Virus genome (UHGV): UHGV-0392477
DNA from: a virus
Reading direction: 5' to 3' (one strand)
Length of the DNA stretch: 39,826 bases
Shown: piece by piece, positions 97-38,449 of the stretch
Layout of the letters: each line of letters starts with the position of its first letter
Numbering within the stretch: the first letter of the stretch is position 1
Program-made: the position numbers and the translations under genes
The notes under the pieces: model-generated
Told to the model about the DNA's origin: nothing
The model's database searches: none
What the model saw: only the letters and a program-made list of their open reading frames with translations

Positions 97-1302
97 ATGG
101 GACAGTTAAGAACAAGGAAACGCGGATCCACCTGGGAATGGTCCTTTGAAGGGGCCAAAATTAATGGCAAGCGCAACCCCATCAGCCAGGGAGGGTACCG
201 CACCAAGGCCGAGGCCATCACTGCCGGCACCCAAGCCAAGGCCGAATACGACTCTGCCGGCCGCAGGTTTACCCCTTCGGACATTAGCATGTCCGATTAT
301 CTTGACTACTGGTACGAAAACTACGTCAAGACCAACCTTGCGCACAACACCCAGGTGGGCTATGAGCGTTTAATCCGTGTCCACCTCAAACCGGCATTTG
401 GGAAATACCGGCTGGCATCATTGGAGACCGATGTTATCCAAAAATGGATTGATGGAATGAAGCGTCAAGGCTATTCCAGGAGCATGGTTAAAAATACCTT
501 ATCCTGCCTGTCTGGTGCCCTGGGATATGCGGTATATCCCTGTAAATACATCAAGTATAATCCCTGTGATTATGCCAGGATACCGAAGATAGTTATGTCT
601 GAGAAGGCCAAGGCACACACAGAATATATCTGCGTCAAAGAGGACTTTGCAGCCATCATTGAGCGCTTTGGCCCGGACAGCAATTTCTATATGCCCCTCA
701 TGACTGGATACCACTGTGGCACCCGCCTGGGGGAGACTTATGGCATTGACTTGCTACATGACGTAGATTTTGAGCACCACACCATAACCGTCCGGCACCA
801 GCTTGCCAACGAGGGCGGAAAGTGGTATTACCGGCCGCCAAAATATGATTCTGTCCGGACTATAAAAATCCTACCAGAGTACGAGAAAATACTGAAAGCA
901 GAAATCCATAACCGCAAAAAGAACATGCTCCGGTACGGCCAGTATTTTACAAAGACGCATCAAATGGACGATGGCTTAATCTTTCAGGCTCCCGCCAACG
1001 TCAAAATTGTCGGAAAGGAAATAATGCCAATAAGCGCCAAAGAAAACGGCGAGTTGTTGACGCCATACTCTTTCAAGTACTGTGCCAAGGTCATCCATGA
1101 GGAACTGGGAAATCCTCTGTTCCACAGCCATTGCCTACGTCATACTCACGGCACGTTGTTGGCGGAGAATGGCGCCCAGCCCAAGACCGTCATGGAGCGC
1201 CTGGGCCACAAGGACATCAAGACCACCATGGACCGCTATGTGTTTAACACGGAGAAAATGCAGAACGATGCCATTGTAATCCTGGCAGACGCTATATCAT
1301 AG
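97..1302 (+). CDS. int: Tyrosine site-specific integrase with an N-terminal arm-type DNA-binding domain
   Basis: C-terminal catalytic motif HSHCLRHTHGTLLAENGAQPKTVMERLGHKDIKTTMDRYVF, i.e. the R..H-x-x-R..Y pattern of tyrosine recombinases. N-terminus is AP2-like. RBS AAGGAGG lies 8 nt before the ATG. Confidence 0.9.
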   Translation: MGQLRTRKRGSTWEWSFEGAKINGKRNPISQGGYRTKAEAITAGTQAKAEYDSAGRRFTPSDISMSDYLDYWYENYVKTNLAHNTQVGYERLIRVHLKPAFGKYRLASLETDVIQKWIDGMKRQGYSRSMVKNTLSCLSGALGYAVYPCKYIKYNPCDYARIPKIVMSEKAKAHTEYICVKEDFAAIIERFGPDSNFYMPLMTGYHCGTRLGETYGIDLLHDVDFEHHTITVRHQLANEGGKWYYRPPKYDSVRTIKILPEYEKILKAEIHNRKKNMLRYGQYFTKTHQMDDGLIFQAPANVKIVGKEIMPISAKENGELLTPYSFKYCAKVIHEELGNPLFHSHCLRHTHGTLLAENGAQPKTVMERLGHKDIKTTMDRYVFNTEKMQNDAIVILADAIS

Positions 1303-3429: not shown

Positions 3430-3543
3430 TAAGCATTAAGTACCGCCTCGACTTCCGCCCTTAATTTCTCTGGGACCTGTTCAATCGTTTTCCTGCCCTT
3501 GCGGATAAGGTCCGCATACACAGTTGCCATATAGCTTGCCATA
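3430..3543 (-). CDS. Second tiny paralogue (37 aa, MASYMATVYADLIRKGRKTIEQVPEKLRAEVEAVLNA)
   Basis: Shares the KGRKT..QVP.K...V..VL pattern with 3260-3388. RBS GGAGGTG lies 8 nt upstream. Confidence 0.5.
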
Positions 3544-3545
3544 CC

Positions 3546-3890
3546 TTACACCTCCATTCCTTCATAAATTTCTGTCAGCGCCAGCTGGGCGTTGGTTATC
3601 TCTTCGGCCAGCGCCAGATTGGCCTCATACTGCTCAGTAAGCGCCAACTGTGCTTCTGTGAGCTGGTCACCCAGGACGTTCGTCTGCTTCTGTAGCTTCC
3701 CGATGTCTGACTCGGGCGGGTATACAAATATCGGCTGTGGGTTACTGGTGTCAGTCACGTCAATATAATCCAGCTGAGCTCCATCCGGGATATCCACCCA
3801 CATGCACTGCAACCCCTGTGGTAAAGCTTCCTCTCCATAAATAATTGACCATATACGGCCTGTACTGTCGTATATCACTAATGCTCTCAT
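3546..3890 (-). CDS. Hypothetical tail-associated protein with a coiled-coil C-terminus. AQLALTE is repeated
   Basis: ORF in the tail fibre region. Internal repeat TEAQLALTEQYEANLALAEEITNAQLALTEIYEG. Confidence 0.5.
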   Translation of the reverse strand: MRALVIYDSTGRIWSIIYGEEALPQGLQCMWVDIPDGAQLDYIDVTDTSNPQPIFVYPPESDIGKLQKQTNVLGDQLTEAQLALTEQYEANLALAEEITNAQLALTEIYEGMEV

Positions 3891-3904
3891 AATTTTATCC
3901 CTCC

Positions 3905-4612
3905 TTATAATGGCCTTGCTAAGATGATTCGGTGGATAGAAGCGTCATATGTAGGGAAATAGCCGCTTATACCGATAAATACTACGGGCTGCCTTGTGAT
4001 GCCAAATATGTCTAAAGCCACTTCTCTGACATTGGAACCTACCGAATAACTATTGCTAGTTGAAGCTTCCCATCTACCGTAATCAGCTCCCTGTTCAACT
4101 ACTCCGACAGTTAACGATACGTCAGACGAATATCTAACATATAATCTTCCATAACTACTGAATGATACAGGTGAACTGAATACTACACCTTTCCTAGCAT
4201 TCTGACTAGCGTTTGCTTTGAAAGATATAGTGTTTCCAACATTCACGTAATCTGTATATAAACCATTGTAATTGATTCCGGAAGTATTCCCATCTAAAAA
4301 TATGTTATAGTACAGATCCAACCACCCCTCGAATGTGCCTGCACGTCCAAAGATGGTCACTCCTCTTTTTATATTCCAGGGCTGTAAATTTCCATCACCC
4401 ACGATTGTCTGGTTTCCGGTCAGATACTGGTTGGCGGCTATTACCTGGTCATAGTTCTGCCCGTAGTAGGTTGCAGCTCCTTTTTCAGCCATAGTTCCTG
4501 TCAACGGATTTCCGTCTCTATCAACAATCACTTTTCCCTTGCGTACATCCGACGCGGCCGCTGTTATTACATCCAGGTCAGCTCCTCCACTGCCATGTAT
4601 AATTGCTTTCAA
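3905..4612 (-). CDS. Putative tail fibre or receptor-binding protein
   Basis: Assigned by position downstream of the tail tip genes. Gly/Asn/Tyr-rich beta-type composition. Confidence 0.5.
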   Translation of the reverse strand: MKAIIHGSGGADLDVITAAASDVRKGKVIVDRDGNPLTGTMAEKGAATYYGQNYDQVIAANQYLTGNQTIVGDGNLQPWNIKRGVTIFGRAGTFEGWLDLYYNIFLDGNTSGINYNGLYTDYVNVGNTISFKANASQNARKGVVFSSPVSFSSYGRLYVRYSSDVSLTVGVVEQGADYGRWEASTSNSYSVGSNVREVALDIFGITRQPVVFIGISGYFPTYDASIHRIILARPL

Positions 4613-4615
4613 TCC

Positions 4616-5092
4616 CTATTCCTCCTCTGAGCAACCCCTTAACCATACAGCAAATTCCGTGGCCGGTTTCTTGCTGTAGGAGGTTACCGTCAATATGCCA
4701 TCTGTATTACACTCTGCATCATCAATCATGTTCAGGTATTTTCTTCGTATTTTTATTTTTTCTGCCTTCTGCGCCGCCGTAAGTTCGCTGTCGCTCTTTA
4801 TCAGTCCCGCATACAGCTCAATCGCATCTGTTGTCTTAAGATGTTGCACTTTTATGTCTGCTGTGTATGGCGCAGCGGATTGTGCGAATGCAGGGATGGT
4901 AATTTGTTTGTCATTCCTCAGGGCATTCACTGCCCTATTCGTAGCGTTAATGTCATTCTGTCCAAAACTGTCGCCCTTTTGTGTATAGGTAGTGGCATCT
5001 GATATACCATAGGTGCCATCCTCGTTCTGGGTCAACCTCCATCGTCTGGAACCCTCATACATATCATCCCTATAATCTGTTTTTAAACTCAT
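4616..5092 (-). CDS. Hypothetical tail/baseplate-associated protein
   Basis: ORF tightly packed in the tail module. Confidence 0.5.
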   Translation of the reverse strand: MSLKTDYRDDMYEGSRRWRLTQNEDGTYGISDATTYTQKGDSFGQNDINATNRAVNALRNDKQITIPAFAQSAAPYTADIKVQHLKTTDAIELYAGLIKSDSELTAAQKAEKIKIRRKYLNMIDDAECNTDGILTVTSYSKKPATEFAVWLRGCSEEE

Positions 5093-5493: not shown

Positions 5494-8218
5494 AACTCAT
5501 GTCCCTCCTTGCCTTGATGGTACCGCTAAGCCCGCCATTAAATTTCAGGGTATGGTCCGTTACCCGTATCAGCAGGTCAGGCACATACTTATTTTCCAGG
5601 AATGCTATGTCGTTGGCATCAATCCGTGGCTCTCCCCGGTATGACAGGTCATATTCCCGGTCTGATTTCATGTAGTCCCCAATCCAATCCGCCAGGTTCG
5701 CGGCATGGACCGTGTCGGACACAAGCGGATTATTCCACGCCTCCAGGCTGCCGGTAGGATTTAGCTGTCTGCTTACCTTGGACTGGGTAGTAACATATTC
5801 CCTGCCTGTCACGACCACCTCTGTCGGCCCTGTGATTCCTGTAAGCTCCACCGTTGCGTAATAGGCACTACTATCTACAATCTCACACCCATATTTCGGG
5901 ATACTTGCAATACCAGTGAAATAGCCGATGAACTTATCACACCACTCTATATCCGGTTCATTCCCGATTCCCCAAGCTGCTGTCAAATCTACCAAAAGAA
6001 GTGAATCTATATAAAGCCTTTTGTTTCCATAGGTATAAATCCTTAGGTCCCACTCTCCTGTTGCCTCAACCGTGTCAATGGCTGATTTGGTATGCCACAC
6101 TCCATCTGGCGCAATAGCCTCTGGACGTAGATTAATATTAAATGATTCTCTATTGGCAATCGCCCTGACCAAATCGCATTCATCATTTCCCGAATACTCA
6201 CCGGGTGATTCCTCCCGCATGAAATTCCCCCGCAAGTAATATTTATGTCCGGATATCATCTGCACAGTTTGTACTATGTGGACTGCGTTTCCATCTTCCG
6301 AGACAACGTATGTGCATTTTCTGGCTGCGTCATACTGTGCGTTGAGCCATCCGGTCACGCCGGTATCAAAAGACCCGTTCTGAACCATATTGGTTGCCTC
6401 CACATAAACCGGGACGTATGTCTTTAAATCATAGGATGGATTAGAAAAATAAAACGTATATCGGTTGTCTAAAGCGGTTACACTTATGGTCTCCCTCGCC
6501 AGCTCCTTTGCATCCTCTGTACTGAGATTGTATATGGTACGTACGACCTGCAGTTCCCTAACCTTGGCCAGCTGCGTGCCCTTTGGTGTCTTGGTCAGCT
6601 CCACACCATATTCCAAGACGTAATCTGTGCTATCCCCAAAGGTTATGTTGTCCAGGGTAACCCGGTTGTTTGGACAGCCCTTGGTAAATTCCAGCACCAG
6701 GTAATCGAACTCCGGGAACTCATGGCTGACCACATAGGTCCGCGTGAGCCCCGAAACCGTGTAGTCCTCCTGCAGCTCACCGTCGTAGTAGGAATGGAAC
6801 ACGACCGTATCCGGCCAGTTCCGACCAAATTCTAGGGTAAGACCGAAGCATTTGTACGCTGCCTCCATGGTAATTCCGACTGTGGGGTTGTCTGCAAACA
6901 ACCCATTATCTCCAGCGACGGCCTCAGATACATAGCCCGTATTGAGATATGTGATTCCATCGGTCTGCCTTGGAAGGAAATATTGTGTACCGGATACACC
7001 TGTATAATCCTGGCCAGACAGGGCATAAGTTTCCTTTTCCGCATGTTCCAGAATGGCTGCCGCATGGGAAAAGTATGTCTCGTTGTCAGATGCCGCTGAC
7101 ATATCCGGCACAAAACTGGATTTAAGGATTATTCTACCAGCCCGGTTCTGATACAGGATACACCTGCCAGCATTAGCAATCAGCTGCAGAGCTTCCTTAT
7201 GCGTTACTACCGGCATCGGATTAACCACCAGAACGTCCTTAAGATATGGATCTATCCAGTAGTCTCGGTAATCCACCTGGGCATCCGCCAGGACGTCCAC
7301 TGCTATGTCATACAGGCTCATACCATTCGGATGGTACTGGCCGCGGTAATATGTACTGTCCATCCCATCAAAACAATCCGATGCCTGGAAATCCATCTCT
7401 GTATCATCAGCTGACCATGATTTCAGTGCGAGTGACGTTCCCGGAATCCACTCAATCGTCCCATCATCCATGGCTTGACCATAAAGGACCTCAACTTGTT
7501 GGCCAATCTCCAAAAAGTTTACCGTGCTCTCCTCATTCTCCACGTCATAGGCCCTGTCCTTGTTATCCACAGTCACATCAAAATCAATAGTAGGCAGCTC
7601 CTCCGATATCGGACTGATATGCTCTTTCTTAGTTGCAGACAATATTTTATTGCTGTCAAAATAGACACCAATACCCATGGTAATCTGATTGATGCGGAAC
7701 CGGCTCCGTCCATTGACCATGGCTGCTGGCACAAACCTCAGATAAGTGGCTCCCTCAAAAATCTCCTCCGTCACATAATGGCCATCCGCATTATTCGTTA
7801 CATTCAAGGTCCGGTTGTCTGAAATGATGGTAAATTCTACGGGATATGCCTTGCCAAATTCCACCGTCAGCCCCTTAATATCATATTGAACGGGAAACCG
7901 GATTTCAATTGCCCCCTGAAGGCCATCCGTCACGATTCCCTGGTTGAGCACCACGTCTGCTGCATCCCTGGGAAGGAAGTACATGCTGCCATCCACCGTG
8001 GTATAGTCCTGGTCACAGGTTGCATATAGCTCCTGTACCTTGTAGTTATCCATGGGCTTCACTAGGTCGGAATAATAAGTATACACATCCGGCTCAGGTA
8101 TGTAGGCGGATGCCTGGGCCTGCTGGTTAATCAGGCCGATGGTGACACGCAGGTGGGACAGCGGGTTCTTCCACTTCCTGCGCATCATGTCCTTATATTC
8201 ATTACTGGCTGCCTGCAT
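5456..8218 (-). CDS. Large tail tip/minor structural protein (Tal-like, about 920 aa) with a carbohydrate-binding-module-like segment
   Basis: Sits two genes downstream of the tape measure. NGSFDTGVTGWLNAQ resembles a CBM_4_9-type motif. The likely start is the ATG at 8218, which overlaps the upstream TAA as TAATG and has RBS GGGGTGA. The longer track ORF (start 8299) runs into the upstream gene. Confidence 0.7.
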   Translation of the reverse strand: MQAASNEYKDMMRRKWKNPLSHLRVTIGLINQQAQASAYIPEPDVYTYYSDLVKPMDNYKVQELYATCDQDYTTVDGSMYFLPRDAADVVLNQGIVTDGLQGAIEIRFPVQYDIKGLTVEFGKAYPVEFTIISDNRTLNVTNNADGHYVTEEIFEGATYLRFVPAAMVNGRSRFRINQITMGIGVYFDSNKILSATKKEHISPISEELPTIDFDVTVDNKDRAYDVENEESTVNFLEIGQQVEVLYGQAMDDGTIEWIPGTSLALKSWSADDTEMDFQASDCFDGMDSTYYRGQYHPNGMSLYDIAVDVLADAQVDYRDYWIDPYLKDVLVVNPMPVVTHKEALQLIANAGRCILYQNRAGRIILKSSFVPDMSAASDNETYFSHAAAILEHAEKETYALSGQDYTGVSGTQYFLPRQTDGITYLNTGYVSEAVAGDNGLFADNPTVGITMEAAYKCFGLTLEFGRNWPDTVVFHSYYDGELQEDYTVSGLTRTYVVSHEFPEFDYLVLEFTKGCPNNRVTLDNITFGDSTDYVLEYGVELTKTPKGTQLAKVRELQVVRTIYNLSTEDAKELARETISVTALDNRYTFYFSNPSYDLKTYVPVYVEATNMVQNGSFDTGVTGWLNAQYDAARKCTYVVSEDGNAVHIVQTVQMISGHKYYLRGNFMREESPGEYSGNDECDLVRAIANRESFNINLRPEAIAPDGVWHTKSAIDTVEATGEWDLRIYTYGNKRLYIDSLLLVDLTAAWGIGNEPDIEWCDKFIGYFTGIASIPKYGCEIVDSSAYYATVELTGITGPTEVVVTGREYVTTQSKVSRQLNPTGSLEAWNNPLVSDTVHAANLADWIGDYMKSDREYDLSYRGEPRIDANDIAFLENKYVPDLLIRVTDHTLKFNGGLSGTIKARRDMSYVATAKNRLAGQ

Positions 8219-14711: not shown

Positions 14712-15677
14712 TTACTGCACCTTGATTTTGCGCATAATACCGGCCGCTTTGGTTGCCTTAAGAGCCGCTGTTGCCAGCATCTCTACCTCACCCTTCTTTA
14801 CCGCGCCGGCTTCCTCAAATTTCGGCAGCCACTGCTTAACAGGGAGTCCTCCAGAAGGAGAAACCGCGTGGAATCCATCCAGCCCGATCCTTGCCGCATA
14901 CAGGGATGTCTCTCCTTTTGTGCCGGATGCCGTATCGATGGATACAATCGGATCGTTGGAACCGCTCTTTGCGCCGAAATCTACCAGTGGGATATCTCCG
15001 TAGCTTTCAATCTGCTGGCCGAAATCATTCTTTGTTACCTGGTACATACCGGCTCTGCGAGCGCATGCCCGAATTTTCGCAATCAATTTCAGATTACCGC
15101 CAATAAAATCCGGCTTGCCGTCCAGGCCCATCAGGAACTCGTCCAACTGGTCCAGAAACAGCTGATAATTTTCGGTCACCTTGGCTGTAGTGGAAAGGTC
15201 AATTGCCGCGCTGGGCTTGTACTCTGTGGAGCTTCCAGTTACAGCCACATCCAAACCGTCAAAACTCTTTTCATTCTTGCTGGAATCACCAATAATTAGT
15301 GTCTCTGAAAACAGTGCGGATGCAGACTTTATCTTCTGCTGCATCTGGAAGGTCACCTCATCATCCACGCCTCCCATATCCGCAATCACACGGTCAATCT
15401 CGAATGCGCCTCCAAAAATCTTAATATCTGTGGTGTACTTCTGTTTCTTGGCCTCGTCCGCCGTATATTCCGCATTAACTGCGCGGAAGCTGGCTGTAGA
15501 TGGTGTGATCACGCGGTAATACCCATAAGTCATGGTTGCCCCACTACCTACAGGAGATACGCAGTCATCAAAAATCATATGATCCATTAAAAAACTGGAC
15601 TTACGGAATTCATCAATGACCGCCATAGACAATTTGTCCTGTGTCTTAAGCTTTGCCTGTGCTAATGTTACTGCCAT
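14712..15677 (-). CDS. Major capsid protein
   Basis: 321 aa. Immediately downstream of the scaffold gene. Confidence 0.75.
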   Translation of the reverse strand: MAVTLAQAKLKTQDKLSMAVIDEFRKSSFLMDHMIFDDCVSPVGSGATMTYGYYRVITPSTASFRAVNAEYTADEAKKQKYTTDIKIFGGAFEIDRVIADMGGVDDEVTFQMQQKIKSASALFSETLIIGDSSKNEKSFDGLDVAVTGSSTEYKPSAAIDLSTTAKVTENYQLFLDQLDEFLMGLDGKPDFIGGNLKLIAKIRACARRAGMYQVTKNDFGQQIESYGDIPLVDFGAKSGSNDPIVSIDTASGTKGETSLYAARIGLDGFHAVSPSGGLPVKQWLPKFEEAGAVKKGEVEMLATAALKATKAAGIMRKIKVQ

Positions 15678-15695: not shown

Positions 15696-16319
15696 TTATT
15701 TTTTAAGTGCTGCTGAAATAGCGTCTTTCAGCGTCATTGGTTCATTGGCTGTCTGTTGCTGCCCACTGGCTACGCCCACCTGGATGAATCCGGTGGTTCC
15801 TGGTGCCTGGGGTTTCAGTGCCGGCACGTCCTCCAGCACCTTGTTCAGGGCTGCCTTAAGTGCCTCATCATTGATTTTCCCATCCTGCCCCATGACCTGA
15901 CTTAAATCAGCCATCTTGAGGACATACGGGATTGTCTTGGCCTCAATTCCCAGGGATACTGCGGCCATGGTTGCCGCGGCCTGCATCTGTGCCTGTTGAG
16001 CGAGGGCCTGGGCTTGGGTGGCCTGCTGCTGTAACGCAGCCACATCTGGTTGTGATGCCGCCTTCTGCTGCTTGAATGCAGCAATCGCCTGGTCCATCTC
16101 TTCCTGGCTAAGTCCCTGCTGCTTGAAGTAGGCTTTCAGAGCCGTATCCTCCTTAGCTGCCAGGGTTCCCTCCAGCATCTGCTGGATTTTGGCATAATCA
16201 ATTATTGGGGATGCCGCCTGCTGGCTGGCCTGGGCCCCCTGCTGCTGGGTCTGTGCCCCTCCCTCGCCGCCTGCGGGCTCTGCAAATAACTGTAAGTTCA
16301 TTGGTAACATGTCTCTCAT
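15696..16319 (-). CDS. Scaffold protein (GP20-type, with the MNLQLFA signature)
   Basis: N-terminal NLQLFAEP is typical of Firmicutes phage scaffold proteins. Gln/Ala-rich and helical. Best start is the ATG at 16319, with GGAGG 8 nt upstream. Confidence 0.75.
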   Translation of the reverse strand: MRDMLPMNLQLFAEPAGGEGGAQTQQQGAQASQQAASPIIDYAKIQQMLEGTLAAKEDTALKAYFKQQGLSQEEMDQAIAAFKQQKAASQPDVAALQQQATQAQALAQQAQMQAAATMAAVSLGIEAKTIPYVLKMADLSQVMGQDGKINDEALKAALNKVLEDVPALKPQAPGTTGFIQVGVASGQQQTANEPMTLKDAISAALKK

Positions 16320-16457
16320 CGTCAATACCTCCATTTTAAGGGTGTCACCCTGTAATTTTTATTGCATCCATTGTCATCAGTGTCGCTGGCCACGCAGCAG
16401 TTTAAAGCCATGCTCGTGTTTGGGCGCAAAAATAGCACCCAGGATAATCCTGCGTGC

Positions 16458-16771
16458 TTATCGCAAATTATAACCCGTCCGTTTCATGTCTCTCGTTACA
16501 GCCTTAATGATTTCGTCTACATCCAGATGTGCTGTAACATCCGTGGAAACTTTCGTCACGGCCGGCTCGTAAGTTGCAAGGAAGATATCCGGCTTACACG
16601 GATATATCTCCCCAGCTATACCACGGATAATGTAATCCCCGATATTGGCTTCGTGTACCCCTTCCAGAGTCCGAATCATGAATTTCACTTCTGGGGTTCC
16701 CTCGTTTTCAAACCAGGCCCTCCCGTCCACTGGAATGCCTCAATTACCACTGGTTTTTTCCTGTACTTCAT
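16458..16771 (-). CDS. Conserved small phage protein (GDYIIRG..GE.YPCKPDIF family). It is split by a 1-nt frame disruption
   Basis: The ATG at 16771 has an excellent RBS (GGAAAGGAGC) and encodes MKYRKKPVVIEAFQWTG before stopping at 16685. The 90-aa track ORF (16458-16730) continues the same family in the -1 frame. The two frames join in the gggaggg run near 16716-16726. Confidence 0.55.
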
Positions 16772-16835: not shown

Positions 16836-17159
16836 TTATAATCCCGGTATTGTATCCTTTATTCCTTTTGCAAGGTTTGCTGCTTTCTTCATCAAAGTAT
16901 TTTCTTCCAGATATTCAAGGCCCTTCAACGTAATCTCAGGCCTTGTCAACGCCACCCTGGGGTATCCGCAGTCAAAGGCATTCCATGTCTGCCCACCTGT
17001 AATATACCCTTCATTCAACAGCATGGCCATTATACGGCTCCATTTCGGTACAGACAGTTCAAGTCTTTCAGCAGATAGGATTTCCCTATCTATTTCCTCG
17101 CAGTCCATTGATTTCTGAAGGATGCGGAGTATCTTATAAATCAACCGGAAATCATCCAT
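16836..17159 (-). CDS. YjcQ-family (winged-helix) phage protein
   Basis: MDDFRLIYKILRILQKS...EEIDREILSAERLELS..W.RIMAMLLNEGYI matches the YjcQ pattern. Confidence 0.65.
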   Translation of the reverse strand: MDDFRLIYKILRILQKSMDCEEIDREILSAERLELSVPKWSRIMAMLLNEGYITGGQTWNAFDCGYPRVALTRPEITLKGLEYLEENTLMKKAANLAKGIKDTIPGL

Positions 17160-17177: not shown

Positions 17178-17375
17178 TTACTGGGATTTTTCATGCTCCT
17201 CGACAATTTTCCTTAACTGCTCTTTCCATTCCTCCAGGGTGTATTTTCCACCAAGGCAGAAAGAAATATCCTTAAGCTGTCCGGTAATTGCGTATACCTT
17301 CCGTCTTAATGCCTGAAGTTCCTCATCGTTCCGCATCCGGTTCTTGAATTCTTCCTTCATCATTGCTTTATTCAC
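17178..17375 (-). CDS. Small charged coiled-coil protein (65 aa). Candidate immunity partner of the MuF C-terminal domain
   Basis: ORF overlaps the MuF stop by 8 nt, so it is translationally coupled. Confidence 0.45.
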   Translation of the reverse strand: MNKAMMKEEFKNRMRNDEELQALRRKVYAITGQLKDISFCLGGKYTLEEWKEQLRKIVEEHEKSQ

Positions 17376-19101
17376 CTACAACTTTCAAAAATGCAAGATA
17401 TAATTCACCCAACTCCTCTTTGAGGAATTTAACCGTTACATCATCCCCTTGGTAAAGGGCAGTGAACACGTTTGCAAACACTTCCAACTCTGAATACCCT
17501 GGGATACCAATATATTGTGATTCATGATAGGCATCGCCCACTATCACATTATCTGTCAGGCACCCCAGTATATCGCTGATGAGGTTATTATACTCCAGTT
17601 CTCCTCCAGGAGCAAATAATTTATTATATCTATCCGCATCTTTCAGCAACCTTTTCTCTGATTCTAAAATAGCATCCGTAAACTGTACATTCATTGGGCT
17701 TCCAAACTCGTTGTGGTCAATCCGGTGCGCCAATTCATGTATCATGACCTCTCTATAGTCATAATATTCATACAACGGATGAGCTGGGTTAACTACAATT
17801 GTGTCTGTATCCGGGTCATACGCATACGCATGTTCAGCCGTCTCCTTAAGCACAACAAATTCATCCTCCGTGTATTTATCGACTAAATCTATCATTTTCT
17901 CAGGTGTATCATCCCGATACACCTTTATCTCATCTGAAACCGTGTATCTCTTCCCTGCCTCCCCCTCCCATTTCTCGGATTTCTGTTTATACTGCTTCTG
18001 ATTTTCTGGTGACAAAGAATATTCCGCCAGCCGCCCATATTTCTCTACCTGCCTTGAAGCATACTTCCGTTCAGCCTCCTGCTGATTGGCCTGGCCGATG
18101 TCTTCCAGTTCCTTTTCACTCCAGATATCGTCCGCCGTGGAAATGCCGGGGAAGTACGTTGTGTGGCTGTCCTTGCATCTGGGATGATACAGGCCGGCCG
18201 CAACGGCCTTGCTCATGAGGGGATACGGACCATCGGATTTCTTTCCGCCGGACCAGACGTCGTCAATCAGGACCTTACCGACAAATGGCAGGCACTTCGG
18301 ACACGGGTTCCCGCGCTTGTTGACAATCACGGTAGTAATCCCCCATTCTTGACGCTTCTCTCCTTCTCCTTGCAGATACGCCCGCTTGGATGCCGTCCGG
18401 ATGGCCATGCCGGCATAATCTGCCAGGGTATGACGGGCACCATTGGCATACTCTACACAGTTAAGGCCCCGTGAGAGCATATCCCTGGTGGCCATATCCA
18501 CGGCTTTTTCATAGGTGCCAGCGCCGGAATTGGCATACACCTGAGCATTAAAGATAGCCTTTCGGTATTGGTCGTTGGCCATCCTGAGAACTGCTGTTTC
18601 TGCCTGCTGCATATCATTGGTGGTTGCCTTAATCAAGGCCTCCAATTTTCGGTCATTGAGCCGGAAAAACTCTGCGGTGGCTTGAGTTGCTTCCCTGCCC
18701 TTAAACATCTTAAGCAGTGATGATGCTTTTTGACGGAAGTTCTTCCCATCCATATTCTCCAGCAAGTTAAACAATCGTTTAGGCATGTTTGGAAAGCGAT
18801 ATCCCCTCTGTATAGCTTTCAATATCTGTATTTCCTGCTGCATGTTCCCACGCTGCCTGGACATCCTGATAAGTTCACCTATCTTTTTGTTGAGATTCTG
18901 AAACTGCTTTCCATACCGTTTTCGATTTTCCCGCTTGTACTTTTCCAGAGCCTTTAGTTGTTCGGCCTGCCACATGGACCACTCAATGCCTTCCTTCGTT
19001 TCCTCGGCACGGTGGTGGTCCATGTTCCGTATCATAGACTTGATAAGTTCATCCTCTATGGCCTGGAAGGCAGCACCTATATCATACTCATTATGTCGCA
19101 C
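17368..19101 (-). CDS. MuF-family (SPP1 gp7/Mu F) head morphogenesis protein fused to an extra C-terminal HExxH domain of about 150 aa
   Basis: Mu F core NCVEYANGARHTLADYAGMAIRTASKRAYLQGE..NPCPKCLPFVGKV. C-terminal extension carries VMIHELAHRIDH and a later SELEVFANVF. GTG start with RBS GGAAGGGG. Confidence 0.8.
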   Translation of the reverse strand: MRHNEYDIGAAFQAIEDELIKSMIRNMDHHRAEETKEGIEWSMWQAEQLKALEKYKRENRKRYGKQFQNLNKKIGELIRMSRQRGNMQQEIQILKAIQRGYRFPNMPKRLFNLLENMDGKNFRQKASSLLKMFKGREATQATAEFFRLNDRKLEALIKATTNDMQQAETAVLRMANDQYRKAIFNAQVYANSGAGTYEKAVDMATRDMLSRGLNCVEYANGARHTLADYAGMAIRTASKRAYLQGEGEKRQEWGITTVIVNKRGNPCPKCLPFVGKVLIDDVWSGGKKSDGPYPLMSKAVAAGLYHPRCKDSHTTYFPGISTADDIWSEKELEDIGQANQQEAERKYASRQVEKYGRLAEYSLSPENQKQYKQKSEKWEGEAGKRYTVSDEIKVYRDDTPEKMIDLVDKYTEDEFVVLKETAEHAYAYDPDTDTIVVNPAHPLYEYYDYREVMIHELAHRIDHNEFGSPMNVQFTDAILESEKRLLKDADRYNKLFAPGGELEYNNLISDILGCLTDNVIVGDAYHESQYIGIPGYSELEVFANVFTALYQGDDVTVKFLKEELGELYLAFLKVVGE

Positions 19102-19369
19102 TCATCAGCGCCCCTTCCGCTCCATCAGCTCCACCCTCCATCAGTTGGCCACCTTTGTTGGAATACACTCTGTATCCCTGCGTCTTAAACTGCCGTGTCA
19201 GACTCTTAAGCTGTGTGACGCTGCTACACTTATCACAGCGCAGCTCTGCATATCCCTGCTTTTCAATGGCGTATATCCCGAATGGCACCTGCTCACTTGC
19301 CACCTGCAGCAGCCCCTGGTACTCCTTCTGGTTCATCTGGTACAGACGGTTCATTACCTTGACCTTCAT
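19091..19369 (-). CDS. Hypothetical protein (92 aa) between portal and MuF
   Basis: ORF overlaps the 3' end of the portal gene by 77 nt in another frame. RBS AGGAAAGG. Confidence 0.35.
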   Translation of the reverse strand: MKVKVMNRLYQMNQKEYQGLLQVASEQVPFGIYAIEKQGYAELRCDKCSSVTQLKSLTRQFKTQGYRVYSNKGGQLMEGGADGAEGALMSAT

Positions 19370-20885
19370 CTGCCTTTCCTCCCTTCGTGTTCAGTTGGAA
19401 GCCGCCGGCAGACGTACTAATCCCGGGTTCCTCCACTTCCGCAATGCCCTGCTCCGCTTTCAGCCTGGCAATTTCCTCCTGCTTCCACTTCTCGTCCTTG
19501 GTATCCCCATACAACTCCTCTACCTGGGCCTCAATACTCATCATGGGGGCACCAGGCCGAGCCTTGGCCAGGGTCTCCACCTGGCTCTCAAAGGATGGGT
19601 TTGCATACTCACCGAAGGGGATATCCACTTTGACCTCCTCCACCCCCTTACCATGAAGGATATTGCAGGCGTTGATTGCCGCACTGACCAGCTCCGGAAG
19701 AGTCTCCTGCAGAGCCTCCACAATAGCATTCCGGGTGTACAGGGTAGCTTTTTCCTTTTCGCGCTGCGCTTCGGCGTTGTCCAGCTTCTTGACATCAATC
19801 CCCAGAGTGGATGGGCTGATAACGCCCTGCAGGCACAGGTCCAAAGCTGTACAATAGGACGCCAGATAACTATCGTGGGGGATAGTTGGCTGCACCACAT
19901 TGACCTTGTTATCTGCATTCTCTGACATATCATTATCAGAAGCAAAATATCGGTCGTCAAATGGGTTCGGCCGGATGACCTGACCTGTCTCCGGGTCATG
20001 CGGTACCAGACAGTCCGGTATGTACGTCTTGGCCCGACCAGCACGCAGCGCATCCATCCACTGGGACCAGGCCTCGTCAAAGGCATCAAAACTGTCCAGC
20101 TTACCGTCAAAGATGCTGCCACCGCGTCCCTCGTATTTGGTGGATTCATAGACTTGCAAGGGTACGGCCAGCATGACTGTATCATCAAACTTCGTATCTT
20201 TTATTCCCTTTGTGGCATCGATGGCATTAAGGGGCACTGGCGTGTCACCCTTATACAACTCGTTACGTATATAGCCGTATCCATAATGCTCATACAGGAC
20301 ATACTGTTGATGCCCGGCCTTATATGGCGTCTTGAACACAACTTCCTTCACACGGTCCCGGTTCCGGACAATCTCAACCCGCTCCCCAGGGTACCACTCA
20401 AGAATAGGGTACTCACTGACAGTCGTATCAATCGTGACCTTAAAGGCCCCATCCCCGATGTACAGGACCTCCTTCAAAGCCTTCTCAATTTTATGGATGA
20501 ACTTATTATCCTTTGCAATGTCCTCCCACAGCTGCCGCTGCTGGTCGTTACCTGCAAAATCAAAATCATTCATGTCATCCAGGACAATGCTTGACAGGAT
20601 GCGGATAATTAGCCCGGGCAGACCGGTATGTATCTTGCGCATCTCCATACCCGGGGTGCATTTGCTGGCCCAGAACTTGTATCTGTCAGCGTACTCCGGG
20701 GTCTGCTGGTACATCTGTTCCAGTTCGTTGCTGTCCCCGCGGTACCAGATGCGGTTCCGGATGGCGTTCGCCTCAAAGTCCAGGACCTCGTTAATCTGGA
20801 TGCAGTTCCCGCTGGCCGGTACCACATTCAGCCAGCTGCGGATGCCCCGCTTGATAGTCTCACTCATGTTGTTCAGCCACCTCAT
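19293..20885 (-). CDS. Portal protein (SPP1 gp6-like)
   Basis: 530 aa. Sits between terL and MuF. IWYRGDSNEL-type motif. Confidence 0.85.
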   Translation of the reverse strand: MRWLNNMSETIKRGIRSWLNVVPASGNCIQINEVLDFEANAIRNRIWYRGDSNELEQMYQQTPEYADRYKFWASKCTPGMEMRKIHTGLPGLIIRILSSIVLDDMNDFDFAGNDQQRQLWEDIAKDNKFIHKIEKALKEVLYIGDGAFKVTIDTTVSEYPILEWYPGERVEIVRNRDRVKEVVFKTPYKAGHQQYVLYEHYGYGYIRNELYKGDTPVPLNAIDATKGIKDTKFDDTVMLAVPLQVYESTKYEGRGGSIFDGKLDSFDAFDEAWSQWMDALRAGRAKTYIPDCLVPHDPETGQVIRPNPFDDRYFASDNDMSENADNKVNVVQPTIPHDSYLASYCTALDLCLQGVISPSTLGIDVKKLDNAEAQREKEKATLYTRNAIVEALQETLPELVSAAINACNILHGKGVEEVKVDIPFGEYANPSFESQVETLAKARPGAPMMSIEAQVEELYGDTKDEKWKQEEIARLKAEQGIAEVEEPGISTSAGGFQLNTKGGKADEGQGNEPSVPDEPEGVPGAAAGGK

Positions 20886-22231
20886 TTCTTCTCAGCCTCC
20901 TCGAATCCAATCAGGTTCCGGTATGGTATCCAGGCATACTGATTGGCATTAATGGTATGGTCGTTCCTGTCCTCCGGCTTGTCCTTCTCGTCATCCCAGG
21001 AGTACCGGTCCAACTCGGACAGATGCTCCACACAGGTATCCACTACCAGGTAACACCCCTGCTGTATCCAGCCCAGCTGCAGGTTGATACGGTCGATGAT
21101 TCCCAGCTGCTTGTACGCATCCCAGAAGTTATACAGACAGCCCTTAAGCCGCTTGTATTTGCGTAGCTCCGTGATGGTCGCCTGGTCCGCATTGTCTATG
21201 TATATATCTTTCGCAAAACCCCAGTCCTTGCGGCACTGCTCCAGAAAGGCCACGAACTTGACTGCTGTGTCACTAGGGGCCAGTGGGACATCCAGTTTGG
21301 CGTTGTTGTAGACCTTCTCAGCCAGGGTAACAAGCTTTCTGTCCTCCGTGATGCCCTGGAATATCATAGCTATGGTATCTGGGGACTTAGAGGAGTAGGA
21401 TGTGTCCAGGGCGGCAGTGAACTTTTTGAATTTCAGTGCCTTGGCCTGCTTGACTGTGATGACATGCTTAGACCGCTCGAAGTTGCTGAAGATCAGGCCG
21501 GTTGCCTTGCCTCTCAAGCCCTGGATCTTGTTTTTCCAGATCTTTGTGCCCTTCGGCGTGTTCGTCATAATCTGGTCCAGCTTCTCCTTACTCAGGCCCA
21601 GATTATGGGCAAAAGAAAAGAACCAATGCACCCAACCGGGTTTTGGTTCCTCCTGTAATTCATCCATTATCTCTTTTGGTGTTTCATCTTCCCACTCAGG
21701 CAGTGGCCTGGAACAGTTGATATACTCCTTATACACATCCAGGCCCGGGTCATCCGGGTTGAGCGTGGCCATCAGGTAATCGCTTCTCATGGCGGCCTCA
21801 CGCACAAACTCAATGTCTGCCGTGTTAATCTCATCAATGTACAAGCATCCGTACTGGCCGCCCAGGGCATCCTTCCACTTGCGCTTGTTGCCGTAGCCGA
21901 CAACAAAGATTATCTTATCGCCGCCGGATGTGTGGAATAGGATGTGAGGCATGTTATATCCACCGCCGCCGTTGCCTTTGTACTCCACCAGCACGCCGAA
22001 GTCATCCAGGATGCCCAGGTCCTTCTGGATGATGTTCTTCTCGGCGGCGCCGGTGTCATCCGCAGCCAGGATGTGCAGCTTTTTGGGCGATTCCGCTACC
22101 TTTAGCATGAATTTGAATAACCCCACCGTGGTCTTGCCGGCCGCCGTGGTACCCTCCAGGAACTCCATCGGGGCATCACAGCGCAGGAACGCCTTGTACT
22201 TATCCGACAGCAGTAATCTACCCGCGCTCAT
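20882..22231 (-). CDS. terL: Terminase large subunit
   Basis: Walker A GTTAAGKTT. 449 aa. Overlaps terS and portal. Confidence 0.9.
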   Translation of the reverse strand: MSAGRLLLSDKYKAFLRCDAPMEFLEGTTAAGKTTVGLFKFMLKVAESPKKLHILAADDTGAAEKNIIQKDLGILDDFGVLVEYKGNGGGGYNMPHILFHTSGGDKIIFVVGYGNKRKWKDALGGQYGCLYIDEINTADIEFVREAAMRSDYLMATLNPDDPGLDVYKEYINCSRPLPEWEDETPKEIMDELQEEPKPGWVHWFFSFAHNLGLSKEKLDQIMTNTPKGTKIWKNKIQGLRGKATGLIFSNFERSKHVITVKQAKALKFKKFTAALDTSYSSKSPDTIAMIFQGITEDRKLVTLAEKVYNNAKLDVPLAPSDTAVKFVAFLEQCRKDWGFAKDIYIDNADQATITELRKYKRLKGCLYNFWDAYKQLGIIDRINLQLGWIQQGCYLVVDTCVEHLSELDRYSWDDEKDKPEDRNDHTINANQYAWIPYRNLIGFEEAEKK

Positions 22232-37759: not shown

Positions 37760-38449
37760 ATGGATTATCAAAGCCTATATGACAGTATTTTATACGCATA
37801 TACGTTTTTTGGCATTGACTCATTTCCAGTAGACTGCTTCGAATTAGTGCGGAAATGTGGTTTCAGAACTGTGAAATATACGGACTTAAGTGATAAGAAG
37901 AGAATAGCCTGTCGAACCCTTAGCGAAGATGCCTGCCTTTTGGATGGAACATTGTTTTATGAGGCTAAAGCCCATTCGCGACGGATACAATTTACAATAG
38001 CACATGAATTTGGGCATGTGTTCTTGAAAACAGACAATGAGGACAAAGCTGATGAATTTGCCAGCCATTTTTTAGCACCACGTATTCTTATTCACAAATA
38101 TAAATGTCATGACGCAATCCAGATACATGATACTTTTGGTCTGTCCTATCAGGCATCTAACAGAGCCTTGATGTCCTATAAGGAATGGTTCCGCAATATT
38201 TCCTACAGCGCAACGAGGAATCCCACGGAGCCAGAGTTGGAGCTGGAGCAAATATTCTTCCCGGAGCAGGAAGAAGCACCGGCCATTATGGTTGAGAAGC
38301 AGATGAAATCTGTCAAGAGCTGCCGTAGACAGCGACTACGCAGGGAATTGGATGAGCGTTCTTCCTTTATGGAATACTTGCGTAATCAACGTGAAAACTA
38401 TGATTTTGAGCTGGCAGAACGCCAGTATCTATATGGAAATGACTTATAA
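37760..38449 (+). CDS. ImmA/IrrE-family metallopeptidase (anti-repressor protease)
   Basis: HEFGHVF HExxH motif. Sits next to the repressor. Confidence 0.75.
   Translation: MDYQSLYDSILYAYTFFGIDSFPVDCFELVRKCGFRTVKYTDLSDKKRIACRTLSEDACLLDGTLFYEAKAHSRRIQFTIAHEFGHVFLKTDNEDKADEFASHFLAPRILIHKYKCHDAIQIHDTFGLSYQASNRALMSYKEWFRNISYSATRNPTEPELELEQIFFPEQEEAPAIMVEKQMKSVKSCRRQRLRRELDERSSFMEYLRNQRENYDFELAERQYLYGNDL

Follow-up and report, generated by a model that had tools for sequence, protein, structure and literature searches.

A MuF minor head protein with an exchangeable zincin-like domain and a linked small partner gene: a candidate toxin/immunity pair in a temperate phage

Why should a minor head protein of a phage carry a C-terminal domain that looks like a metallopeptidase, and what might be the role of the small gene that adjoins its stop codon? 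The question is raised by the ‘window’ analysed here, the whole 39,826-nucleotide stretch of virus genome UHGV-0392477, in which the ORF list has a 577-aa reading frame with a GTG start (the MuF gene; 17368..19101, minus strand) followed by one of 65 aa, also starting with GTG (orf65; 17178..17375, minus strand). The two had been put forward, from the letters of the DNA, as a candidate MuF toxin/immunity pair (the original prediction); comparative support for this now comes from the polymorphism of the C-terminal ‘slot’, the zincin fold of its occupant and the linkage of that occupant to orf65, and we infer from these a possible toxic function for the one and immunity function for the other.

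The setting is that of a head module. On the minus strand, TerL (20882..22231) and portal (19293..20885) are followed by orf92 (19091..19369), the MuF gene and, further downstream, the scaffold gene (15696..16334), which places the MuF gene downstream of the portal; a single conserved ORF of 73-92 aa separates these two. The phage has a complete, siphovirus-type gene set and is temperate, a prophage, as evidenced by its integrase (97..1302; phrog_1, E = 4e-62). Its probable host genus is Enterocloster, of which cultured isolates exist; the exact orf65 peptide is present in Enterocloster genomes.

The N-terminal module (residues 1-378; 17968..19101, minus strand; GC 0.50) is readily placed, with Phage_min_cap2 (PF06152) matching residues 10-360 (E = 3.4e-31; 108.9 bits against a cut-off of 26.3) and phrog_581, minor head protein, matching the N-terminal part of the protein at E = 4.7e-78. 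Its parts are the Phage_min_cap2 core, a cysteine motif (CxxC...HPxC) and a charged linker terminating in a conserved junction, ...RLAEYSLSPENQKQYKQKSEKW, with the consensus ...ENxKxYxxKxxxW. In a cross-type alignment of all 16 payload types, the module is conserved as far as W378, and divergence sets in straight after it. The MuF core had been taken to end at about residue 300, leaving an extension of more than 250 aa, but the conserved module reaches W378 and the variable part amounts to 199 aa. Loci L010-L019 (payload 100% and N-module 85% identical) were also considered as markers of the junction; the DNA alignment puts their breakpoint at around 18600, inside the N-module, and the cassette boundary therefore rests on the cross-type alignment and not on these loci.

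What lies beyond W378, that is, residues 379-577 and the stop codon in the window (17368..17967, minus strand), is a swappable payload. Across 79 IMG/VR phage loci whose MuF N-modules are 65-85% identical to that of the window, the sequence after W378 is of at least 16 unrelated types, or absent, rather than a single domain conserved among MuF orthologues; the window has the zincin type. The slot is occupied in sister phages by the accepted toxin domains CdiA_C (E = 2.7e-19), ADP-ribosyltransferase (ADPrib_exo_Tox, 4.8e-18) and PBECR2 (6.9e-18), and also by JAB-like and several HExxH types. Most payload types come with an adjoining small ORF of their own, in pairings that hold at every locus counted (E0-D0 10/10, E1-D1 9/9, E3-D2 8/8, E5-D3 7/7, E6-D4 6/6 and E7-D5 5/5). 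Short MuF proteins are encoded at five related loci, with the same scaffold gene in three and no scaffold match in two, from which it follows that head assembly is independent of the payload. Nor is a metallopeptidase the less common variant that it had been thought to be, given that, among the 191 MuF toxins of Jamet 2017 (PMC5576092), 20% have a metallopeptidase domain, and that HExxH is found in at least 8 of the 16 payload types of this MuF lineage; counting the JAB-like types as well, peptidases make up at least 10 of 16. Such a dominance of the slot by peptidases would also fit a non-toxic role, for example in processing or host takeover.

The presence of a C-terminal HExxH domain on the MuF protein is confirmed, with HELAHRIDH beginning at residue 455 and SELEVFANVF at residue 537. 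A single HExxH is no rarity in a protein of 577 aa (a chance of about 0.02, as a rough estimate), and the motif carries meaning here because it is conserved across relatives, being present in 151 of the 163 family sequences retrieved. In both 32 diverse domain sequences and 83 full-length relatives, H455, E456, H459, D510 and H526 are invariant, and D462, Y530, E540 and A543 are at least 90% conserved; the catalytic residues are kept in sequences just 23-38% identical to the window. These positions fall into three segments of the minus strand: the HELAHRID motif (17716..17739), with H455 and H459 as putative zinc ligands, E456 as putative catalytic base and then D462; D510 (in SDILG), H526 and Y530 (17512..17574), presumably also in the active site; and the ExFA motif, E540-V-F-A543 (17473..17484).

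A confident structure is predicted for residues 379-577 (pLDDT 95, modelled from alignment A2), which replaced a first model built from a shallow alignment of 12 close sequences (A1; pLDDT 64.7, with the HExxH helix below 50). As modelled, the payload has a zincin fold, its nearest neighbours being anthrax lethal factor, the Pro-Pro endopeptidases and ArdC, and the core layout of zincins is present, with HExxH on one helix and a predicted zinc-binding glutamate on a later one. Profile alignment sets HELAHRID against HETAHAID of PPEP-1, and E540 against E185 in the EEFFAE segment of that protein; the equivalent glutamate of lethal factor and PPEP-1 (family M34) binds zinc. E540, the candidate third-ligand glutamate that had been picked out in SELEVFANVF, is on the basis of its conservation and this alignment the probable third zinc ligand.

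Sequence libraries give the family no such placement. No Pfam-A or NCBIfam model was reached at threshold, and no Pfam toxin or zincin model among them: MPTase-PolyVal (PF18818) scores 16.9 bits with the full protein and 19.0 bits with the domain alone, below its gathering cut-off of 27.5, and matches none of the 83 relatives at 1e-3, and Pfam ATLF does not match the payload. The best profile match among PDB sequences is PPEP-1, at a non-significant E = 0.29, and a direct sequence search of PDB with the full protein returned chance matches only. A kinship with DUF4157, one of the families against which a comparison had been suggested, finds no echo here, with no DUF4157 among the matches listed, MPTase-PolyVal sub-threshold and a fold that is closest to the M34/ATLF zincins. 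In the libraries searched, then, both the payload family and its partner are without model or name. The family is nevertheless large, with 327 clusters at 50% identity in an exhaustive search of representatives, which was used in place of word-indexed protein searches that had given just 15 and 24 proteins, mostly fragments. Among 83 long members, 77 are MuF fusions, of two MuF subfamilies (PF04233 and PF06152), and the payload was not found in other polymorphic-toxin delivery contexts in this set.

We turn to the partner gene, which adjoins the MuF stop codon, in the position expected of an immunity gene. The listed ORF of 65 aa, from the GTG at 17375, does share 8 nt with the MuF gene (17368..17375), as originally described; the overlap is unlikely to belong to the gene itself, which is more probably one of 61 aa (17178..17363, minus strand) that starts at the ATG at 17363, 4 nt past the MuF stop. 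This start is favoured because homologues are 61-62 aa long and begin ML or MM, because the 61-aa form of the protein is the one found in NCBI, JGI and UniRef, and because a Shine-Dalgarno sequence, AGGTGA (17372..17377, minus strand), lies 8 nt upstream of the ATG. Neither Pfam nor PHROGs nor NCBIfam offers a family for the product, which also lacks a recognisable fold, and the window encodes no paralogue of it at any other place. In a scan for promoters and terminators around orf65 there was no excess over shuffled sequence, and no sign of its own expression in lysogens, which leaves a role in protecting lysogens from superinfection unsupported.

Linkage between payload and partner holds from both sides: an orf65 homologue lies directly 3′ of the payload in 6/6 and 36/36 loci (42/42 close loci), a search with orf65 led to loci of which 78/78 have a zincin immediately upstream, and each of the 134 jackhmmer matches to orf65 in a set of 14,460 ORFs has a zincin ORF as its 5′ neighbour, these counts being drawn from related contigs and not from independent events. 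Among the sister phages, an orf65 homologue occurs in 9/9 loci with payload type E1 and in 0/69 others, which is not the distribution of a head-module gene that is present regardless of the C-terminus. Payload identity and orf65 identity are correlated (rho = 0.91, for loci from the orf65-side search). Payloads 29% identical pair with partners 33-35% identical, and behind the more distant members of the payload family come ORFs of 63-78 aa that are weakly related. By these comparisons, payload and orf65 are exclusively linked and co-diverging. Neither of the two outcomes that had been set out as refuting the original prediction has come about, be it a C-terminal region conserved as a structural domain without zincin fold and HExxH, or an orf65 that is present whatever the C-terminus. 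YjcQ was considered as a third member of the module and set aside, as it is found behind three different payload types and is missing at most loci that have the payload of the window.

With such conservation of H455, E456, H459, D510 and H526, and nearly so of E540, down to 23% identity, a confidently predicted zincin fold and an orf65 that occurs only beside the zincin domain, the idea of an inert structural or DNA-binding extension with an incidental HExxH and an unrelated small head gene, for which it might be said that one HExxH can be chance and that peptidase-family matches are sub-threshold, runs counter to what conservation and linkage already show and can be given next to no weight.

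We propose instead that the MuF-zincin protein is a packaged and injected effector peptidase and that orf65 encodes its inhibitor, a reading that we put at a probability of roughly 0.6. Residues 1-378 are a minor head protein of the MuF/SPP1 gp7 type, a few copies of which would, by analogy with gp7, be anchored to the portal inside the capsid, and residues 379-577 would form an exchangeable, M34/ATLF-like gluzincin metallopeptidase, with zinc held by H455, H459 and probably E540, and E456 serving as catalytic base. We infer that the fusion would be packaged and would pass with the DNA into the next host cell, where it would cleave one or more host proteins. In the producing cell, the orf65 protein would most probably bind and silence the peptidase, in the manner of IapK, which neutralises the MuF toxin Apk2, whose toxicity has been tested, via protein-protein contact (PMC12226406).

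Two further accounts share the peptidase with this proposal. The first makes the zincin a protease that acts in cis or in assembly, cutting MuF from the portal or trimming it, either before packaging or afterwards, or cleaving scaffold or capsid; orf65 would then be a timing regulator or chaperone, and there would be no host target. Sister phages with N-modules 65-85% identical to that of the window, most of them with a related scaffold, carry an ADP-ribosyltransferase, CdiA_C, PBECR2 or nothing in the slot, and the head pathway cannot, as a consequence, depend on the zincin. [quoted passage not shown] Moreover, recombination as a cassette that brings its own partner gene along, and orphan tips left behind, are not what one would look for in a housekeeping protease.

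The second account keeps the payload as an injected peptidase and casts orf65 as a folding or packaging chaperone, or as a co-packaged adaptor that aids its action in the new host. Linkage and co-divergence prove a specific functional or physical coupling of the two, not its direction of effect, and both the near-neutral character of the orf65 protein (pI 7.9; many other slot partners are acidic) and the outcome of the promoter scan would suit a protein of this kind. However, the small neighbour in the MuF system that has been tested is an immunity protein that occludes the active site (PMC12226406). One contig (L045) has an orphan zincin C-terminal fragment that lacks HExxH, together with a second partner gene, and the retention of a partner beside such a catalytically dead ‘tip’ is typical of immunity genes; the pair has also stayed together in several prophage remnants. 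We hence regard a chaperone or adaptor as improbable, and favour orf65 as the inhibitor of an injected peptidase.

How does this arrangement compare with known systems? The layout of MuF toxins is already known, and the locus is much as one would expect of a system that was described between 2012 and 2017: a MuF domain stands at the N-terminus of a protein whose gene lies just past the portal, the enzymatic domain at the C-terminus varies, a small cognate ORF comes next (orf65, 61-65 aa; 89% of MuF toxins are followed by an ORF of less than 150 aa, PMC5576092), the phage is a temperate one of (gut) Firmicutes, and classic toxin domains occupy the slot in sister phages. Where it differs is that the zincin payload lies below every Pfam-A and NCBIfam threshold and that its partner family is unnamed; in a census by domain models in the style of Jamet 2017 it would presumably have been counted as an ‘extension without known domain’.

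With MPTase-PolyVal (PF18818; ArdC, 6sna; PMC5512222) the payload shares the zincin fold, HExxH, a downstream glutamate on a later helix and fusion to virion-associated modules, MuF included, as well as an aspartate three residues past HExxH, which is typical of a widespread phage clade (PMC5512222) and is represented here by D462, at least 90% conserved. The histidine conserved at the end of strand 2 in that clade (PMC5512222) has no conserved counterpart on the strands here, however, where Y428 and N438 are conserved, and the window protein has two domains and a dedicated partner gene rather than being a large polyvalent protein. The M34/ATLF group (lethal factor, PPEP-1, -2 and -3), of which lethal factor is listed as Tox-ALFMetallopeptidase (Zhang 2012), has in common with the payload the alignable HExxHxxD and E-x-F-A motifs (HETAHAID and EFFAE in PPEP-1) and a conserved tyrosine shortly before the third-ligand glutamate. 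Identity is nonetheless 12-20% over aligned residues, with no significant match (E about 0.3), the payload has an extra helical insert of some 40 residues between the two catalytic helices, and it is predicted to be intracellular and capsid-borne, not secreted.

As regards delivery, the T4 Alt ADP-ribosyltransferase, P1 Dar/DdrB and the N4 virion RNAP resemble the proposed system in being head-carried enzymes with DNA-coupled delivery and early action; they are not fused to MuF, however, rely on different packaging signals and have no known dedicated small inhibitor gene, and for MuF payloads capsid delivery is a proposed route. The CDI (CdiA-CT/CdiI) and Rhs systems offer a parallel for the sharp junction, the variable C-terminal domain and the small cognate gene directly downstream, and also for the displaced, truncated tip with its own partner gene seen on one contig (L045), an arrangement known from CDI and Rhs loci. 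They differ in using a surface filament rather than the phage capsid proposed here, and in their junctions (VENN or PxxxxDPxGL, as against ...ENxKxYxxKxxxW), and a single orphan array is all that was seen in our set.

MuF toxins are abundant in human-gut prophages, and those payloads tested so far are, to our knowledge, only nucleotide-modifying: an ADP-ribosyltransferase and the (p)ppApp synthetase Apk2. The locus provides a clean and widespread test case, namely a predicted protease of 199 aa with a confident model, defined putative catalytic residues and a partner of 61 aa, in natural sister phages that differ mainly in payload, and in a probable host genus, Enterocloster, that can be cultured. 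A fold can now be given to one class of the MuF ‘extensions without known domain’, and profiles A2 and A4 could serve to annotate hundreds of phage proteins.

Finally, and more tentatively, zincin and orf65 could represent a large, unmodelled two-gene family of capsid-delivered, lethal factor-like proteases with dedicated small inhibitors, which would cleave a specific host protein rather than act as a general poison; we rate this as possible, if short of an even chance. Were it true, the host protein, cut at the very onset of infection, might for instance be a defence factor or one that governs the choice between lysis and lysogeny, and, since peptidases fill most of the payload types of this MuF lineage, proteolytic takeover of the host would be the main use to which the MuF slot is put in Lachnospiraceae phages of the gut.

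The MuF gene (17368..19101, minus strand; 577 aa from a GTG start in the ORF listing) encodes a protein that opens with a minor head protein module of the MuF superfamily (Phage_min_cap2, PF06152, E=3.4e-31, residues 10-360; phrog_581, E=4.7e-78) and continues into a C-terminal domain that is exchanged between related phages. In 79 IMG/VR loci (L046-L124), fetched with MuF N-modules 65-85% identical to that of the window, sequence is shared through ...RLAxYSLDxENxKxYxxKxxxW, the last residue of which is W378 in the window, and diverges completely from the next residue on; we therefore place the ‘payload’ at residues 379-577 (17368..17967). The original prediction, of an extension of more than 250 aa after about residue 300, thus stands as to its presence but not its limits, and the comparison of C-terminal ends that it had proposed finds them polymorphic, with at least 16 unrelated extension types beyond the shared junction and five short MuF proteins without any extension. 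Pfam assigns CdiA_C (E=2.7e-19), ADPrib_exo_Tox (E=4.8e-18), PBECR2 nuclease (E=6.9e-18), Peptidase_Mx1, and Peptidase_Mx together with an ADP-ribosyltransferase; judged by motif, HExxH is present in at least 8 of the 16 types and two look JAB-like (HNHPxGxxxPSxxD). The JAB-like motif also occurs in the C-terminal extension of Anaerostipes phages AC844P1-3, which among cultured phages in the collection are the nearest relatives. As sister phages have bona fide CDI and ADP-ribosyltransferase toxin domains at this very position, we identify the site as the MuF polymorphic-toxin slot (PMC5576092; PMC3482391). Both this slot and its metallopeptidase payloads were already known, the latter carried by 20% of 191 MuF toxins in Jamet 2017 (PMC5576092), a figure that does not bear out the description of such a payload as ‘less common’. 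Across these 79 loci the slot is dominated by peptidases, not nucleases. Within the window, GC content is 0.50 in the MuF N-module, 0.41 in the payload and 0.42 in the partner gene orf65, against 0.49-0.56 in the flanking head genes.

Known peptidase families give only sub-threshold matches to the payload, all centred on HExxH, with none reaching its own family threshold in Pfam-A or NCBIfam; MPTase-PolyVal (PF18818) scores 19 bits against a cut-off of 27.5, and M78, M76 and an NCBIfam HExxH family likewise fall short. An exhaustive profile search nevertheless matches the domain in 327 clusters at 50% identity (E<=1e-3; 136 at E<=1e-10), nearly always at the very C-terminal end of a protein of some 450-620 aa. 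Phage_Mu_F (PF04233) is present in 57 of 83 long members and PF06152 in 20, whilst none matches a Pfam zincin model at 1e-3; the family is essentially dedicated to MuF proteins. In alignments of sequences just 23-38% identical to the window, H455, E456, H459, D510 and H526 are invariant, and conservation is at least 90% at Y428, N438, D462, Y530, E540 and A543; the invariant positions include the HExxH residues first noticed in HELAHRIDH, which starts at residue 455.

Searching the PDB with Foldseek leaves the ranking of nearest folds unchanged (anthrax lethal factor, Pro-Pro endopeptidases and ArdC) at weak E-values, and the top matches among viral models are ‘minor capsid proteins’. PPEP-1 is also a marginal match in a profile search of PDB sequences (E about 0.3), its HETAHAID aligning with the payload HExxHxxD and its E185-F-F-A with E540-V-F-A; fold and motifs are common to the payload and the M34 peptidases, yet sequence similarity is not significant. 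The glutamate of this PPEP-1 block is the third zinc ligand in family M34, so that the candidate Glu originally picked out in SELEVFANVF (residue 537 onwards) is probably correct, and H455, H459 and E540 probably form a zinc site, with a geometry read from the alignment. An Asp three residues after HExxH also marks a widespread phage clade of polyvalent-protein metallopeptidases, a group linked to lethal factor (PMC5512222). On sequence and a predicted structure, we regard the payload as a lethal-factor/MPTase-type gluzincin that looks active.

Directly 3' of MuF lies orf65 (17178..17375, minus strand; 65 aa), which, as called from GTG starts, shares 8 nt with the MuF ORF. Its homologues are 61-62 aa long with N-termini ML or MM, a good Shine-Dalgarno sequence lies 8 nt upstream of ATG 17363, and the gene probably starts at that ATG, 4 nt past the MuF stop; the adjacency originally noted stands, the overlap probably does not. 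The exact peptide recurs in Enterocloster bolteae and E. clostridioformis genomes and in at least 1000 contigs. In the 79-locus set most of the common payload types (E) come with a small ORF (D) of their own, usually one that abuts or overlaps the MuF stop (E0-D0 10/10, E1-D1 9/9, E3-D2 8/8, E5-D3 7/7, E6-D4 6/6, E7-D5 5/5); the main type without a tightly coupled one is E2, the PBECR2 nuclease.

For E1, the type in the window, an orf65 homologue follows the payload in 6/6 genome or metagenome loci, 36/36 IMG/VR loci and 9/9 loci of the MuF-N set, against 0/69 of the remaining loci of that set, and from the orf65 side a zincin domain ends the ORF directly upstream in 78/78 loci; the counts are drawn from related contigs and are higher than the number of independent events. 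On this exclusivity orf65 belongs to the payload; it is not the general head-module gene that would have refuted the original proposal. A jackhmmer search with orf65 over the complete set of six-frame ORFs from the fetched loci (14,460) gave 134 hits, of which 130 fall between -40 and +60 nt from the end of a zincin ORF; the other four occupy the same position in four loci already known to carry the pair, and lie outside these limits only through an ORF call at an upstream start. Identities of payload and partner to the window pair covary (Spearman rho 0.91 over 27 distinct, phylogenetically non-independent pairs): payloads 29% identical to that of the window go with partners 33-35% identical, and beyond these, at greater distance, the ORF after the payload is 63-78 aa long and resembles orf65 weakly. 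No promoter signal for lysogen expression was found around orf65.

The window is a temperate siphovirus-type prophage, encoding an integrase (97..1302), tape-measure protein, DNA polymerase, primase-helicase and ImmA-like protein. Its head module runs on the minus strand from the large terminase (20882..22231) through the portal (19293..20885), a small conserved ORF (phrog_25639, 19091..19369), MuF, orf65, a YjcQ-family winged-helix gene (16836..17159; PF09639, E=1.3e-26), orf90 (16458..16730; phrog_419, E=7.8e-21) and the scaffold (15696..16334) to the major capsid protein (14712..15677). The small ORF overlaps the portal by 77 nt in a different frame, as also in the related locus L001, and runs 11 nt into the MuF start; orf90 looks 5'-truncated, its 83-113-aa homologues (L066, Streptococcus phage Javan351) starting with MKYRKKPVVIEA..., a segment absent from the window copy. 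The ImmA/IrrE-like metalloprotease gene (phrog_87; 37760..38449, plus strand), in the low-GC right prophage end (GC 0.37), is presumably part of the lysogeny switch and has no relation to the payload. YjcQ shares the low GC (0.43) of payload and orf65; we reject it as a module member, since at 91-100% identity it follows three payload types (E1, E3 and E15) and most E1 loci lack it; it has the look of a mobile accessory gene of the head module, independent of the pair. In its N-terminal third (18600..19100), which has a variable insert near residues 100-140, MuF shows only 74-78% DNA identity to phages (L010-L019) otherwise ~100% identical to the window from 18600 to 16800, a jump that marks a recombination breakpoint inside the N-module.

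The pair is also kept in prophage remnants flanked by bacterial genes (L002, L008, L204/L205 and L206). These hold the zincin or its 3' part plus the partner gene (at 1-2000, 5950-6400, 3500-5000 and 1400-2600, respectively), most of the phage being gone and the flanks comprising a dlt-like operon, MatE, ABC-F and others; this could reflect chance decay or selective retention. One contig (IMGVR_UViG_3300045988_111611; L045/L154) carries, at L045 positions 65-972, a payload end, a partner, an orphan zincin fragment of a different subtype (profile positions 106-197, without HExxH) and a second partner of matching subtype. The orphan and second partner look like a displaced toxin tip with an immunity-like gene, an arrangement known from CDI and Rhs loci and seen here in this contig only.

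In architecture, then, the locus is that of a MuF polymorphic toxin: a temperate phage here joins a MuF anchor to an exchangeable zincin with intact catalytic residues, next to a private partner gene that diverges along with it. Comparative genomics and the predicted structure lead us to infer that the fusion would be packaged through the MuF-portal interaction and enter the next cell along with the DNA, where the peptidase would cleave one or more host proteins. In the producing cell orf65 would bind and block it, by analogy with Apk2/IapK, the only MuF system tested for its small partner, in which IapK closes off the Apk2 active site and acts largely on its cognate toxin (PMC12226406). The main rival reading makes the payload a protease for assembly or self-processing; it loses ground because payloads other than proteases, or no payload at all, are found in sister phages, most of which have related scaffold genes.

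What this adds is modest, namely the placing of one MuF extension class in a lethal-factor-like zincin family, with a definition of the family of its partners and of the junction motif. As for its role, the payload may be a growth-arresting toxin, or a protease with a narrow target that serves takeover or anti-defence; peptidase payloads, as Jamet et al. have suggested, might be just mildly toxic, and might bias the lysis-lysogeny decision (PMC5576092).
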